A DNA stretch of 64,000 nucleotides from a phage. Positions 10,658 through 51,628 of the stretch are shown here, in pieces. The DNA lies in assembly GCA_024672275.1 (NCBI GenBank), contig GCA_024672275.1_4536.1; one strand, written 5' to 3'. How positions within the stretch are numbered: the stretch's first letter is position 1; each line of letters begins with the position of its first letter. Both the position numbers and the translations under genes were made by a program. The notes beneath the pieces are model-generated. The model saw only the letters and a program-made list of their open reading frames with translations, was not told where the DNA came from and ran no database searches.

Positions 10658-11499
10658 TACCTCTCCTTATTAAGTAATACTGCTAAAGACTGTTCAATAC
10701 CTTTATTTAAATCTGATTTTGTAAGATAGTGACTGGTTACTAATTGTGACTTCACCGGACGTGCTGCTGGAGCATTATAGGTTGAAGCTGATACCGCCGA
10801 TATCTTAACAGGTTCTGGCATCTGTGTCAAGATCTTTTCCGCAAACTCCGCCCAAGAAATAAAATGGCTTCCTGCAAAATGGTAAGTCTTAACAGACCTT
10901 GACCAACCTGTTTTTAATACTTCAAAAATAGCTTCTGCTAAATCTGGAGCATATGTTGGACAAGAGAACTGATCAGCAACAATAATAAAATCACGTTGTC
11001 CATCGTTATAGCGAGACAACATCGTTTTTAGAAAGTTATTTCCAAATTCACTATATACCGAGGCTGTTCGAATAATATATGCATTTGGGTTAACTCCTCG
11101 CACCATTTTTTCACCAAGTTCTTTCGTATACCCATAATTGTTTATTGGGTTAGGTGTAGTATCTTCAAAAATAGGATGAGAATAATTAAAAATATAGTCT
11201 GTAGAAATATGCACAAAATCAATTTTAAGTTTGCTGCACACTGCCGCAATATTCGCAGGTCCATAAGCATTAACAGCCAAAGCAGTAGCAAAATCATGTT
11301 CTGCTTTATCTACAGCCGTATAAGCGGCGCAATTAATAACACCATCTACATAATCTTCAATAATAGCGTTTCGCACAGCTTCAAAATTTGTAATATCTAC
11401 ACGTTCTTTAGGATAAATTAAAGATACATTTGAAGGAGCCACTTTACGTAAAGCTTGTCCCAGTTGTCCATTACCACCCAATACCAGATATGTTAGCAT
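10657..11499 (-). CDS. rmlD: dTDP-4-dehydrorhamnose reductase (RmlD-like)
   Basis: GGNGQLG Rossmann motif, NCAAYTAVDKAE, STDYIF, YGYTK. Confidence 0.85.
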   Translation of the reverse strand: MLTYLVLGGNGQLGQALRKVAPSNVSLIYPKERVDITNFEAVRNAIIEDYVDGVINCAAYTAVDKAEHDFATALAVNAYGPANIAAVCSKLKIDFVHISTDYIFNYSHPIFEDTTPNPINNYGYTKELGEKMVRGVNPNAYIIRTASVYSEFGNNFLKTMLSRYNDGQRDFIIVADQFSCPTYAPDLAEAIFEVLKTGWSRSVKTYHFAGSHFISWAEFAEKILTQMPEPVKISAVSASTYNAPAARPVKSQLVTSHYLTKSDLNKGIEQSLAVLLNKER

Positions 11500-25048: not shown

Positions 25049-26157
25049 GTTCCCTCCACCATTTCCCGTAAACGGACACCTGTTGGTTTAGTAGGTATTC
25101 CACCATCAGAAAACTCTTCATACTCAATCTCAACAAATTTACCAATTAACATTTCGGCATTCTCTGCTTTACGATAATTGATAGTCTCATGAGCATCTTT
25201 ACGCATTAAGAATTCGACTACTTTACCATTTTCCATCTCACCTGTCAACACTCCATCGCCATTTTTATCACTTTTTGAATTTGTTACTTTAACTTCAAGG
25301 GTATGGCGAGGCTTACGTTTAATAACGTCATAAGAACGTTTATCAAATTCGTAAACTCCGTGAGCATTACGATATACTACACCTTCAGCTTTCTCAAGTA
25401 AAGCTTTTTCATAGAAAGCATCAAACTGTTCTTGGTTTTCAATATACTCTGTATGAACTACACAAATAAGCTCGTCAAGACCATAATCTTCAACTACTGC
25501 CTTAAGAGCAGCAAGAACATCAACACGTTTTTCAAACGGTAGATCTGGAACTGGAATATCGTATACGTAATAGTTCAGCAAAGGTGTATTTGCATTATGC
25601 TTCTTCCAGGCACTGTTAATTTGTTGTAGACTAAGGACACCTAACCCAGCAAACACTTCACCATCAAGAGGATGACCAACAACTTCACTAATAAAGTTTG
25701 GAATACCTTTCCAATGAGGTGGCAGGTTATACACTTCCCCAGCTTTTGATAAACACTCTCCTTTCATGTTAATCATAGAACGTAACCCGTTCAGTTTGTA
25801 TTGTGCATAACCAGGGAACACAACCCTTTCAGGATAATCTTTATAATCCTGGCATTTCATTGGTGTGGAAGGAACATGGTTTTCAGCTTCTTCTTTTGTT
25901 TTATAATAGCCATTCTTTAACTGTTTTGTCCATTTGGCAAAAGCTTCAAGTTCAGCTTGTTCTTCTGGTGTTGTTTCATTGGAACGACCAATGTTTTTTG
26001 CTTCTGCTGTATAAGATTTTTCTGTGATTTTTCCACCTACCCTTCCATGAGCTACAGTAACAACTGCACCATCTGTATACACTGTCCACTGTTTAAGTTT
26101 TCCTTTTGAATCTTTACCATACAGCGTTTGATTTGTTTGTTGCATTAGTCCTCCCAT
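25030..26157 (-). CDS. ATP-dependent polynucleotide ligase (DNA or RNA ligase, nucleotidyltransferase superfamily)
   Basis: Motif I YKLNGLR (KxNG), motif IV EGVVYR, later IKRK. Confidence 0.6.
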   Translation of the reverse strand: MGGLMQQTNQTLYGKDSKGKLKQWTVYTDGAVVTVAHGRVGGKITEKSYTAEAKNIGRSNETTPEEQAELEAFAKWTKQLKNGYYKTKEEAENHVPSTPMKCQDYKDYPERVVFPGYAQYKLNGLRSMINMKGECLSKAGEVYNLPPHWKGIPNFISEVVGHPLDGEVFAGLGVLSLQQINSAWKKHNANTPLLNYYVYDIPVPDLPFEKRVDVLAALKAVVEDYGLDELICVVHTEYIENQEQFDAFYEKALLEKAEGVVYRNAHGVYEFDKRSYDVIKRKPRHTLEVKVTNSKSDKNGDGVLTGEMENGKVVEFLMRKDAHETINYRKAENAEMLIGKFVEIEYEEFSDGGIPTKPTGVRLREMVEGTWEPRE

Positions 26158-33201: not shown

Positions 33202-33453
33202 ATGCCGATCACTCCCCATTTGGGGTTCGAAGGATATATGCAAAATAGCTTTTATTTTAGGTGCCGTGCTTGTAATAGGCATTTGACAAACCACTCCAGA
33301 CGTGATAAAAATGGAGTCATCAAGGAATCAGACCTCTGTTCTATTTGCACAGGTTTGGCTTTTGATGATAGTCCCGAAAGGGTTTATCAGCATCAATGTA
33401 TAACAGACGTTCTCGTGTCAAACTTGGTAGAGGACGAACAACTAACAGATTAG
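33202..33453 (+). CDS. small zinc-finger protein
   Basis: CRACN...CSICTG; GAGGAG RBS. Confidence 0.5.
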   Translation: MPITPHLGFEGYMQNSFYFRCRACNRHLTNHSRRDKNGVIKESDLCSICTGLAFDDSPERVYQHQCITDVLVSNLVEDEQLTD

Positions 33454-33460
33454 GAGGAAC

Positions 33461-33710
33461 AATGTCTCTATTAGAAAAACACGTGTTTGAAGATGGTAAC
33501 GGCAATGCAGTTTTTCTTTTCCATCCAGAAAAATACACATCTGAAAACAATGGTACAACTTCTATTGTAATCACTAAAGATGTTAAAGTTATTGATTTCT
33601 TGGCTCTGATGCGAGAGATGGATCTTGAAATTAATACTTTTAACGCAGAAGCTTTGGTTGTTGCTCTTCTGGAAAAGAAAGATAGTGAAGAAGTAGCAGA
33701 ATATGCTTAA
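33461..33710 (+). CDS. hypothetical protein
   Basis: Start at ATG after TTAGGAGG RBS (MSLLEKHVFEDG). Confidence 0.5.
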
Positions 33711-33717
33711 ATAACTA

Positions 33718-33747
33718 TTGACAAACGTATCCTTCATATGTTAGGAT
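33718..33747 (+). promoter_or_regulatory. sigma70-like promoter of ACTATTGACAA family (TTGACA-18-TAGGAT)
   Basis: aactattgacaa context and TG-containing spacer shared with other promoters in window. Confidence 0.45.
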
Positions 33748-33760
33748 ACGTTCATCAAGT

Positions 33761-33950
33761 GTGGTAACAGGGTCGTTGACTTTTGTTAAGAGGGGCTTGC
33801 ACTGCGGTAGTGTTAGAGACTACTTCTTCAGAGGTTAGCTACCAAAGAGGAAAAGGAATAGTCTCGGCTCAAGAACTTTTACGCTGAAAGTTGGGCTTGG
33901 TCTTAGAGAATGTAGCGGTTCTCTACAATCGTCAGCGTCTCTGTTACCAC
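33761..33950 (+). ncRNA. candidate structured leader / small RNA preceding first tRNA
   Basis: gtggtaacag at 33761 is exact reverse complement of ctgttaccac at 33941 (10-bp closing helix); internal hairpins; between promoter and tRNA. Confidence 0.3.
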
Positions 33951-33956
33951 ATTTAT

Positions 33957-34031
33957 GGCCCTGTAGCTCAATGGGAGAGCTGTCGGCTCATAACCGATAG
34001 GTAGCTGGATCGAAACCAGCCAGGGCCACCA
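33957..34031 (+). tRNA. tRNA with CAU anticodon (Met or lysidine-Ile), CCA encoded
   Basis: Hand-folded: 7-bp acceptor ggccctg/cagggcc, anticodon loop ctCATaa, T-loop atcgaaa. Confidence 0.7.
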
Positions 34032-34033
34032 AC

Positions 34034-34108
34034 GTCTTTATGGTGTAATGGATAGCACAGGAGTCTTCTAAACTCTTAGTCAAGGTTCGATTCCTTGTAA
34101 AGACACCA
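34034..34108 (+). tRNA. tRNA-Arg (anticodon UCU)
   Basis: Acceptor gtcttta/taaagac, loop ctTCTaa, T-arm caagg-ttcgatt-ccttg, CCA encoded. Confidence 0.7.
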
Positions 34109-34304
34109 GAACATTTTAACATGAATTAGCTCAAGTGATTTGAACCCACTACTGATCATGGTGGCAGAGAATGAGGCAAGTATGTCAGACATTATAAACA
34201 AAGGCCACGGTTATATTAGAAGACATAAATGCTCGAAGAGCACCGTTCGTTGAGAACGGTGGTTGGTGGAGTCACCATTCATGGTAAAATGTTTTAAAAA
34301 ACTA

Positions 34305-34334
34305 TTGACAACTAACATTATTTTATGTTAGATT
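34305..34334 (+). promoter_or_regulatory. sigma70-like promoter (TTGACA-18-TAGATT), ACTATTGACAA family
   Basis: About 8 nt upstream of tRNA-Ser 5' end. Confidence 0.5.
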
Positions 34335-34342
34335 ATAAGTAT

Positions 34343-34433
34343 GGAAGGGCAAATCGACGTGGCGACGAAAACGGTCTTGAAAACCGCCGAGCTTGAAAGA
34401 GCCTTGGGAGTTCGACTCTCCCTCCTTCCGCCA
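34343..34433 (+). tRNA. tRNA-Ser (anticodon UGA), class II
   Basis: Long variable arm, loop ctTGAaa, T-arm gggag-ttcgact-ctccc, discriminator G, CCA encoded. Confidence 0.7.
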
Positions 34434-34437
34434 GATT

Positions 34438-34523
34438 GGTAGATTGGTGAAATGGTAGCCACGACAGTTTGCTAAACTGTAGTCGGAAACGGCGTGTAGG
34501 TTCGAGTCCTACATCTACCGCCA
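34438..34523 (+). tRNA. tRNA-Ser (anticodon GCU), class II
   Basis: Acceptor ggtagat/atctacc, stem acagt/actgt, loop ttGCTaa, long variable arm, discriminator G. Confidence 0.7.
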
Positions 34524-34653
34524 AGTTCTTTTTAATATAGCTTACTTTAATAGAGTAAACTTTCGGCAGATGGCCCCCACCATCTTACCGATACCTCATA
34601 GTTAGTGGTGCGAACACTGGCTATTTTAAAAAGAATTTAAATATTAGTATTTA

Positions 34654-34741
34654 GGTGAGTTAATTCCGTAGGGGTAGCGGGGCAGACTGTAAATCTGTTA
34701 TCATTGCGATTCGGGTGGTTCGACTCCATCACTCACCACCA
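34654..34741 (+). tRNA. tRNA-Tyr (anticodon GUA), class II
   Basis: Acceptor ggtgagt/actcacc, loop ctGTAaa, long variable arm, CCA encoded. Confidence 0.65.
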
Positions 34742-34747
34742 AATTAA

Positions 34748-34833
34748 GATGAGTTGGCTGAACGGTTTAAGCGGCGGACTGTTAATCCGTGTTCGAAAGA
34801 ACGATATAGGTTCAAATCCTATACTCATCGCCA
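34748..34833 (+). tRNA. unusual tRNA: Asn-type anticodon arm (GUU) in a long-variable-arm (class II-like) scaffold, discriminator G
   Basis: 86 nt with CCA; stem gcgga/tccgt, loop ctGTTaa; 15-nt variable region gttc-gaaa-gaac. Confidence 0.55.
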
Positions 34834-34840
34834 GAATTAT

Positions 34841-34917
34841 GGACTTGTAGAGTTAAGGTAAACCCCCAGTCGCCAAGAGGCTTCTGGAATTGCAGGTATC
34901 GAATCCTGCCGAGTCCC
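34841..34917 (+). pseudogene. degenerate tRNA-like element
   Basis: Acceptor ggacttg/cgagtcc and T-arm-like gcagg...cctgc (8-nt loop) but no regular anticodon arm; no CCA. Confidence 0.3.
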
Positions 34918-34923
34918 AGCTTT

Positions 34924-34998
34924 GCTCCTATAGTATAATGGCTATTACAACGGTTTTGTAATCCGTGGATCTCTGTTCGATTCAGAGTGGGAGCACCA
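34924..34998 (+). tRNA. tRNA-Thr (anticodon UGU)
   Basis: Acceptor gctccta/tgggagc with one GU, D-arm gtataatggctattac, loop ttTGTaa, T-arm ctctg-ttcgatt-cagag, CCA. Confidence 0.6.
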
Positions 34999-35271
34999 AT
35001 ACAACATTAAGGGCACTGTGATTGATCGTCGTATCCTGTGCACAAGGTCTGCTCGAAAGACAGTGTTCTTAGTATTGTGTTGATCACACAAAGAGTTACC
35101 TGAAACTTGACCGGAGTAGGGTTGGATGGGGCAAAAGAAGAAGCGGCTCTCCCATCGACAGCAACGAAGAATAATATTTGACTTTGGTTTTGTATTATTT
35201 TAAGTTAGCTTACCGAACGTAGGGCTAGTCACCCAATGGGATACTCGTCACTGTCCCACTCAATAAAACTA

Positions 35272-35301
35272 TTGACAACCAATAGTAAAATGTAGTATAG
35301 T
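35272..35301 (+). promoter_or_regulatory. sigma70-like promoter (TTGACA-18-TATAGT), ACTATTGACAA family
   Basis: About 11 nt upstream of tRNA-Gly. Confidence 0.55.
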
Positions 35302-35312
35302 AAAGATGTAGG

Positions 35313-35386
35313 GCGTTCTTGGTGTAGCGGTAGCATTCCGTCCTTCCAAGTCGGCGGCACGAGTTCGATCCTCGTAGAACGCTCCA
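35313..35386 (+). tRNA. tRNA-Gly (anticodon UCC)
   Basis: Acceptor gcgttct/agaacgc, loop ctTCCaa, T-arm acgag-ttcgatc-ctcgt, discriminator U, CCA. Confidence 0.65.
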
Positions 35387-35484
35387 AATTATTTAATAAA
35401 GGGTTGCCAGAAAACTTTCTCTTTTACTCATGGTTTTCTCCTTCTCTCACACCTCTTCTGGTTGCCCTTCATTAAATGATTTAT

Positions 35485-35560
35485 TGGTTTGTAGTGTAGT
35501 CCGGTAGCACACGACACTTTGACTGTCGTAGGTTTGGTTCAAATCCAGACAGACCAGCCA
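35485..35560 (+). tRNA. tRNA-Gln (anticodon UUG)
   Basis: U1-A72 start, stem cgaca/tgtcg, loop ctTTGac, discriminator G, CCA. Confidence 0.7.
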
Positions 35561-35565
35561 TATAA

Positions 35566-35642
35566 CGGAATTTAGCTCAGTTTGGTAGAGCATACGCTTT
35601 GGGAGCGTAGGGTCGCAGGTTCGAATCCTGCAATTCCGACCA
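35566..35642 (+). tRNA. tRNA-Pro (anticodon UGG)
   Basis: C1-G72, D-arm gctcagtttggtagagc, stem tacgc/gcgta, loop ttTGGga, T-arm gcagg-ttcgaat-cctgc, CCA. Confidence 0.75.
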
Positions 35643-35648
35643 ATCAAA

Positions 35649-51598: not shown

Positions 51599-51628
51599 TT
51601 GACACGAAGTTTCTATATGTGTTACAAT
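51599..51628 (+). promoter_or_regulatory. sigma70-like promoter (TTGACA-18-TACAAT)
   Basis: Immediately after terminator, upstream of baseplate genes. Confidence 0.55.

Follow-up and report, generated by a model that had tools for sequence, protein, structure and literature searches.

We identified a structured RNA element of 198 nt (sp1, hereafter the leader; positions 33757-33954, + strand) at the head of the tRNA cluster of an Escherichia coli phage. It is a previously unannotated, covariation-supported structured RNA that is restricted to one phage genus. The leader is very likely to be under selection for its structure, and it is probably a new phage non-coding RNA. Its extent is supported by the predicted fold, by covariation and by a covariance model, R1, that was built from eight distinct sequences.

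The window, i.e. the whole 64-kb stretch of DNA that was analysed, belongs to Phapecoctavirus, a genus of phAPEC8-like E. coli myophages. Across the tRNA region (33400-36000) it shares 98-99.5% identity with Escherichia phages anhysbys, dw-ec, Mt1B1_P17, phAPEC8 and others, and its close relatives are all Phapecoctavirus members of the Stephanstirmvirinae with genomes of ~150 kb. ARAGORN predicted ten + strand tRNA genes between 33957 and 35879, to which Rfam added a tRNA-Tyr-like gene (34654-34738) and a tRNA-Ser/Sec-like gene (34343-34429); none of these 12 tRNA-like genes (ARAGORN, RF00005/RF01852) falls within 33757-33954. As originally predicted, the element lies between a promoter (33718-33747) and a tRNA-Met gene (CAU; 33957-34031, +; ARAGORN and Rfam, 64.5 bits). 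The helix that closes it ends 2 nt before the 5' end of this tRNA, where RNase P is expected to cut and would thereby set the 3' end of the leader RNA. A tRNA-Arg gene (UCU; 34034-34108, +; ARAGORN and Rfam) comes second in the same predicted transcript.

The original prediction described a perfect 10-bp helix closing an interval of 190 nt (33761-33950). The two arms of that helix, GTGGTAACAG (33761-33770) and CTGTTACCAC (33941-33950), are perfectly complementary and the closing helix is real, but it is longer than was described and encloses the 198 nt of 33757-33954. Fold and alignment place its 5' strands at 33757-33786 (P1 33757-33772, P2 33774-33780, P2a 33783-33786) and its 3' strands at 33925-33954 (P2a 33925-33928, P2 33931-33937, P1 33939-33954), all on the + strand, giving a terminal helix of 16 bp, a 1-nt bulge, 7 bp and 4 bp, in which the 16-bp P1 includes 2 G-U pairs. 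Taken alone, the 10-bp inverted repeat is unremarkable: a scan of 800 nt also yields an 11-nt perfect repeat that is unconserved in the phiWec lineage. The minimum free energy of 33761-33950 is -71.5 kcal/mol, compared to a mean of -51.4 +/- 4.5 for 200 dinucleotide shuffles (z = -4.48), none of which folded as well. The full 198-nt element reaches -76.0 kcal/mol on the + strand and -53.7 on the - strand. The + strand, which is also the strand of the tRNAs, folds far better because many of the pairs are G-U.

Within the terminal helix, the predicted architecture comprises two junctions, all parts being on the + strand: P2a, P3 and hairpin D meet in a three-way junction, and P3 meets hairpins A, B and C in a four-way junction. 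P3, whose 5' strand (33792-33796) pairs with 33900-33904, closes the four-way junction. Hairpin A (33799-33813) has a 6-bp stem, with 3 of the 6 pairs compensatory, and a variable loop of 3-5 nt. Hairpin B (33816-33865) is a long arm with A-rich internal loops, in which compensation has turned A-U into G-C and C-G into G-C; the apical segment GGUUAGCUACC (33833-33843) does not vary between lineages, and the tip, GAGGUUAGCUACCAA, forms an invariant block. Hairpin C (33866-33897) consists of 6 bp, an AGA bulge and 7 bp, and is almost invariant save for one U-A to A-U compensation. Hairpin D (33905-33924) has a lineage-specific stem sequence in which 5 of 7 pairs are compensatory, and its loop keeps GUAGC at 33912-33916. 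The internal hairpins anticipated at the outset are thus real and are kept by compensatory changes. The loop of hairpin B carries GCUAC, which is complementary to the GUAGC of loop D and might pair with it; both loops are invariant across lineages.

Two other pairings were considered and rejected. RNAalifold proposed an alternative for the interior (columns 24-28 with 34-38, and 143-147 with 174-177), which was dropped in favour of P3 because P3, the same helix that was used in the covariation test, is 100% paired and its first pair appears as G-U, C-G or U-A across three lineages. Pairing of the hairpin B loop with GGUAGCU of tRNA-Met was also set aside, as the phiWec179 lineage has GGCAACU in this tRNA segment and yet leaves the loop unchanged. 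In addition, we observed that the invariant junction segment TTGTTAAGA at 33783-33791 continues as GGGGC in the window, a combination that we take to resemble, in reverse complement, the boxA antitermination motif of E. coli rrn and lambda. This resemblance is probably coincidental, and it lies on the wrong strand for action in the leader RNA.

The structure is conserved across related phages, in all Phapecoctavirus lineages found, with 13 covarying pairs. The covariation alignment, A4, holds 8 distinct rows from 3-4 independent lineages, all of one genus. Against a structure drawn partly from the window sequence, 97.6% of its pair cells form standard pairs, and 13 pairs have changed on both sides, covering 28 cells. 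The covariation score for this structure is 0.184, compared to 0.097 +/- 0.010 for shuffles, and none of 500 shuffles reached the observed value; as a control, sliding the 3' partners by 1-3 columns left 38-44% of cells paired and 0-2 covarying pairs. All 13 compensatory changes fall within five helices inside the terminal arms, and, among the interior helices, only the tip of hairpin B and the lower stem of hairpin C are without a compensation. The covariation of the leader is therefore real but phylogenetically shallow, coming as it does from 3-4 lineages of one genus.

The leader is also unevenly constrained in sequence. Its interior is ~68-82% identical between lineages and about 80% identical over the 8 distinct sequences, and the element as a whole retains 68-90% identity, compared to 52-62% for the neighbouring protein gene in the same comparison. 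Variable columns are concentrated in the interior (48/152) relative to P1 and P2 (3/48; Fisher p = 2e-4). Since P1 and P2 are near-invariant, covariation does not itself support the terminal helix. Invariant blocks of 15-34 nt are present, and hairpins A and D and P3 drift. This pattern, in which the terminal helix, hairpin C and the tip of hairpin B hold their sequence while other stems drift, leads us to infer sequence-specific recognition by a protein or RNA partner. It suggests, from sequence comparison, that the conserved blocks may be specific recognition surfaces rather than generic spacer.

Searches by blastn found the element in 71 phage records, which were Phapecoctavirus-type wherever inspected, some of them under odd host labels. 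Identity was at least 99% in 62 of the 71 and ~81% in a diverged clade (phiWec179/181/188/190 and PsgM04F), and a third variant and minor variants came from one IMG/VR contig and two metagenome contigs. Model R1 scored 206-228 bits on known copies, with 228 bits on the window element, and, when run over 49 loci that included sister-genus tRNA clusters retrieved via the terminase gene, it recovered copies in Phapecoctavirus-type phages only. Neither the rest of the 64-kb window nor 40 other loci yielded a further copy, and none was present in the tRNA clusters of Justusliebigvirus (arall, 92CQ and four IMG/VR contigs) or in the T4 tRNA region. Diverged homologues were sought in IMG/VR (with three patterns), metagenomes and GTDB, yielding only Phapecoctavirus-type copies; 24 extra 16-mer matches from the IMG/VR pattern scan were rejected as chance, none having matched R1. 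The leader had no match in 5,426 complete E. coli genomes, so that a host-derived repeat was not found there, and none in the GTDB genome collection. No phage record that we inspected annotates it as RNA, and the literature searched held nothing relevant on transcriptomes or non-coding RNAs of these phages. Near-identical Phapecoctavirus sequences also occur under non-Escherichia names, namely MG065650 (Campylobacter phage B15), OR584014 (Pseudomonas phage PsgM04F) and MH252123 (Klebsiella phage ZCKP1), and the host labels of these three records may be unreliable.

The promoter upstream of the leader is of the sigma-70 type with an extended -10 element (33718-33747, +), with TTGACA at 33718-33723 and TGT-TAGGAT at 33739-33747. 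Its layout is TTGACA-18-TAGGAT with TG, and it scores 10/12 with TG. The phiWec179 lineage retains both hexamers, and the spacer between them has diverged. Transcription would start at ~33754, placing the first nucleotide of the leader ~3 nt downstream of the predicted start. The window contains six copies of the pattern TTGACA-N14-16-TGNTANNNT compared to 0.24 expected, a 25-fold enrichment, and two of the six lie within the tRNA cluster. A pattern scan places the copies at 1682-1710, 10802-10830 and 25220-25248 on the - strand and at 33718-33747, 34305-34334 and 51599-51628 on the + strand; together they are probably the promoter set that this phage presents to the host polymerase. A previous study reported that rV5-like phages use sigma-70 promoters, with an extended -10 in 11 of 33 (PMC3606486). 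We also observed a palindrome over the first promoter (33718-33758; TTGACAAACGTATCCT / AGGATACGTTCATCAA, 88% complementary), which the phiWec179 lineage retains through compensatory substitutions and matched 1-nt insertions (AAGCGTGTCTTA / TAAGATACGCTT). This palindrome could be a promoter-overlapping operator, or it could form a hairpin in RNA when transcription reads through from the upstream ORF.

A terminator scan found no terminator-like site between 33757 and 33957, and the predicted primary transcript (33754-34304) folds as four separate modules: leader, tRNA-Met, tRNA-Arg and trailer. The ORF upstream of the promoter (33462-33710) shares 46% amino acid identity with arall_220 of Justusliebigvirus, the sister genus, in which tRNA-Met follows the stop codon of the orthologous gene by 8 nt and no leader is present. 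The promoter and the element, ~245 bp together, thus constitute an indel between Phapecoctavirus and Justusliebigvirus. As Justusliebigvirus lacks the leader, the leader is dispensable for tRNA processing as such.

The trailer of this transcript is a second end-paired spacer (sp2; 34109-34304, +), which lies before the promoter at 34305-34334. The original prediction was right that a spacer with internal pairing begins at 34109, but it is 196 nt long rather than 230. Starting 1 nt past the CCA end of tRNA-Arg, it has a closing helix of 17 nt (34110-34126 with 34277-34293); between lineages this helix shows a single compensatory change, C-G to U-A, and a mismatch that is swapped from A.G to G.A. 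Only 2 of the 58 predicted pairs covary, the middle (~34180-34230) is poorly conserved, and the spacer is absent from Justusliebigvirus. It looks like a self-folding trailer, and the case for a specific RNA is far less strong here than at the leader.

Several features elsewhere in the cluster deserve mention in their own right. Every spacer of the tRNA cluster folds on itself. The spacers at 34524-34653 and 35387-35484 are closed by long terminal helices (12 bp, and 11+6 bp, respectively) and, unlike the leader, they are conserved in Justusliebigvirus, with 75-98% identity over the aligned parts. Two further spacers, 34834-34923 and 35723-35800, each combine an acceptor-like closing stem with a T-arm-like hairpin (GCAGGUAUCGAAUCCUGC and GCUGGUUCGAAUCCAGC) and look like degenerate tRNA relics; the former is 96.5% identical in Justusliebigvirus phage arall. 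The gene-like segment at 34343-34429 resembles tRNA-Ser(UGA), has a long variable arm and was missed by ARAGORN; the tRNA-Sec model scores a sub-threshold 37 bits on it, and its PsgM04F counterpart is annotated as tRNA-Ser. That at 34654-34738 resembles tRNA-Tyr(GUA) (39 bits), was likewise missed by ARAGORN, and is called a pseudogene in Mt1B1_P17. A terminator hairpin at 35995-36013 closes the cluster, weak sub-threshold matches to the RyhB and MicA models lie over it (35950-36020), and conservation in Justusliebigvirus is 90% over the ~70 nt that follow the last tRNA. The tRNA-Met gene (33957-34031) shares 95-97% identity with the tRNA-Met of many T4-like coliphages (F2, HX01, JS09 and others) and only ~60% with the Justusliebigvirus tRNA-Met at the same position; on this sequence resemblance, tRNA gene exchange between unrelated phage families is suggested.

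The leader begins ~3 nt after the predicted start and its 3' strand stops 2 nt short of the RNase P site, a placement that would suit an RNA processed from the tRNA precursor. We hypothesize that host RNA polymerase would initiate at ~33754 from the conserved extended -10 promoter and that the nascent leader would fold into the two-junction structure supported in silico and by covariation, its first and last 16-27 nt pairing to enclose both junctions. RNase P, following the established route of tRNA 5' maturation, would then cut at 33956/33957 and release an RNA of ~200 nt. Both the 5'-triphosphate end and the 3' end of this RNA would be buried in a helix of ~23 bp, and such burial is expected to confer resistance to 5'-end-dependent RNase E and to 3' exonucleases, so that the RNA should accumulate. 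That it is a stable small RNA, a possibility put forward in the original prediction, would follow from these predicted ends. The invariant helix and loops may serve as binding sites for a partner, either protein or RNA, which might be recognized on the released RNA or on the leader while it is still attached; sequence analysis identified no partner, target or seed region. The full chain, modelled here from promoter start through folded leader, RNase P release and a stable RNA of ~200 nt to partner binding, stands in our estimation evenly poised between being right and wrong.

A possible but distinctly less probable alternative is that the leader acts purely in cis, as a folding insulator, an anti-Rho element or an RNase III processing helix, with any released fragment a by-product. 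By folding on itself, such a leader would avoid misfolding of the tRNA, Rho loading and RNase E entry, and it could offer an RNase III site as in rRNA leaders. The spacers sp2, sp3 and sp5 of the same cluster are also closed by long terminal helices with unrelated sequences, and so this architecture could serve a generic cis role. The C/G ratio of the leader is 0.65 (G-rich and C-poor) compared to 1.11 for the window, which is the opposite of a Rho loading site. P1 and P2 together make up about two turns of helix, a length in the range of RNase III substrates, and the modelled arrangement of 16 bp, a 1-nt bulge and 7 bp would provide the near-continuous duplex of at least ~20 bp that an RNase III helix calls for. 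Moreover, the tRNA-Met acceptor stem is predicted to form with a probability of 0.998 behind the native leader, compared to an average of 0.80 (sd 0.31) with 60 shuffled leaders, only one of which performed as well as the native sequence. However, the same probability of 0.998 is obtained with no leader at all, and the sister genus Justusliebigvirus manages without one. An insulator also needs self-containment alone, and not a two-junction fold with invariant blocks of 15-34 nt.

Beyond the processed leader RNA that we favour, bolder roles for the released molecule can be envisaged. The leader might represent a new class of phage effector RNA that neutralises a host factor, blocking for example a tRNA-targeting or RNA-sensing defence nuclease alongside the co-transcribed tRNA set. 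Alternatively, its palindromic UAGCUA loop and the complementary GUAGC loop might drive self-association into an RNA-only assembly. We consider either outcome improbable.

It is highly improbable that the leader is a MITE-like element or the relic of one, in which the 16-bp arms would be DNA-level terminal inverted repeats and the RNA fold incidental. Such an origin would account for the perfect, sequence-invariant terminal inverted repeats, and the promoter-plus-element block is an indel relative to Justusliebigvirus. It is nevertheless a single-copy sequence that E. coli genomes and GTDB lack, a target-site duplication is not visible at its junctions, and a DNA-level element predicts neither the compensations inside the arms nor a strand-specific fold that depends on G-U pairs. 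A riboswitch-like or attenuator leader, sensing a ligand or tRNA and controlling transcription of the downstream tRNAs, is comparably hard to credit. While the leader does sit between a promoter and genes, and conserves nucleotides at the junctions where its helices meet, neither a terminator nor an alternative anti-terminator pairing is seen downstream of it and no Rfam riboswitch or T-box matches it even at E = 10; control of a ribosome-binding site is impossible because the downstream genes are tRNAs and are not translated. Least credible of all is a 34-codon small protein, encoded by a TTG-initiated ORF (33783-33887) that is open in all lineages and was called by two automated annotations (hypothetical in WPEC4 and PsgM04F), since 13 of its 34 residues differ between the window and the phiWec179 lineage, the ~20 nucleotide changes are almost all non-synonymous (~1 synonymous, by eye), which indicates no purifying selection on the peptide, these same changes are pairwise compensatory in the RNA stems, the TTG start codon is part of helix P2a, and inspection by eye of the adjoining upstream bases, GACTTTTG, shows no ribosome-binding site.

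Comparison with known RNAs places the leader apart from described families. Rfam 15 (4227 models) gave nothing at the gathering threshold in 33757-33954 and, at E up to 10 over a region of 2.4 kb, no match in the element; searched alone, the element returned one 11-nt chance match (E = 8.4). No T-arm GGTTCGAATCC-like hairpin or T-loop motif was seen in the leader sequence, and no paralogy was found among the spacers of the tRNA cluster. In bacterial rRNA and tRNA operons, long-range leader and spacer helices flank the mature RNAs and are cut by RNase III. The leader is similar in that a long helix surrounds a folded domain within an untranslated precursor, beside an RNase P site, but the operon helices enclose a mature functional RNA and the leader helix encloses an RNA without known function. 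In YrlA, a bacterial Y RNA, and in 6S RNA, the 5' and 3' ends likewise pair into a long stem around a branched or bulged domain, as is typical of stable RNAs that bind proteins. Unlike YrlA and 6S RNA, the leader has no T-loop, no 6S-type central bubble and no Rfam match at E up to 10.

The closest parallel in genomic logic is found in bacteriophage T4, where rnaC (species 1, 139 nt) and rnaD (species 2, 119 nt) have been validated by Northern blot, though their function is still unknown (PMC9697503). Like these RNAs, the leader is encoded inside a phage tRNA cluster, on the tRNA strand and abutting a tRNA gene, and all are presumed to be excised from a tRNA precursor. The T4 RNAs lie 3' of tRNA-Arg, whereas the leader is a 5' leader directly after the promoter; it is also larger, with two multi-helix junctions, and lacks the tRNA-like T arm (CCGGGTTCGAATCCCGG) of rnaC. 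Sequence and model similarity are absent, as blastn-short found only chance words of 9-10 nt between the leader and rnaC/rnaD and R1 was silent in the T4 tRNA region. The two systems share a genomic logic and differ in fold. The large, ornate RNAs ROOL and GOLLD (PMC12286853) are structured RNAs of unknown function that are often phage-encoded beside tRNA genes. These RNAs are 3-4 times larger than the leader, are widespread and represented in Rfam, and show no match to it. The leader is probably a new RNA family within the phage tRNA-operon-associated RNAs, being analogous to T4 rnaC/rnaD rather than homologous with them.

Phapecoctaviruses are common E. coli phages that are used in therapy cocktails. 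The leader offers a tractable case in this genus: it is a clean indel relative to the sister genus, the E. coli phage that carries it can be cultured, and its fold is defined, with evident sites for mutation. Even as nothing more than a processing scaffold, it would illustrate a rule by which phage tRNA operons are built, namely that every spacer self-folds. More generally, the production by large phages of stable RNAs other than tRNAs from tRNA operons has been a puzzle for 50 years, since rnaC and rnaD of T4, and this covariation-supported, end-paired, promoter-proximal leader of ~200 nt would add a second, unrelated example to it.
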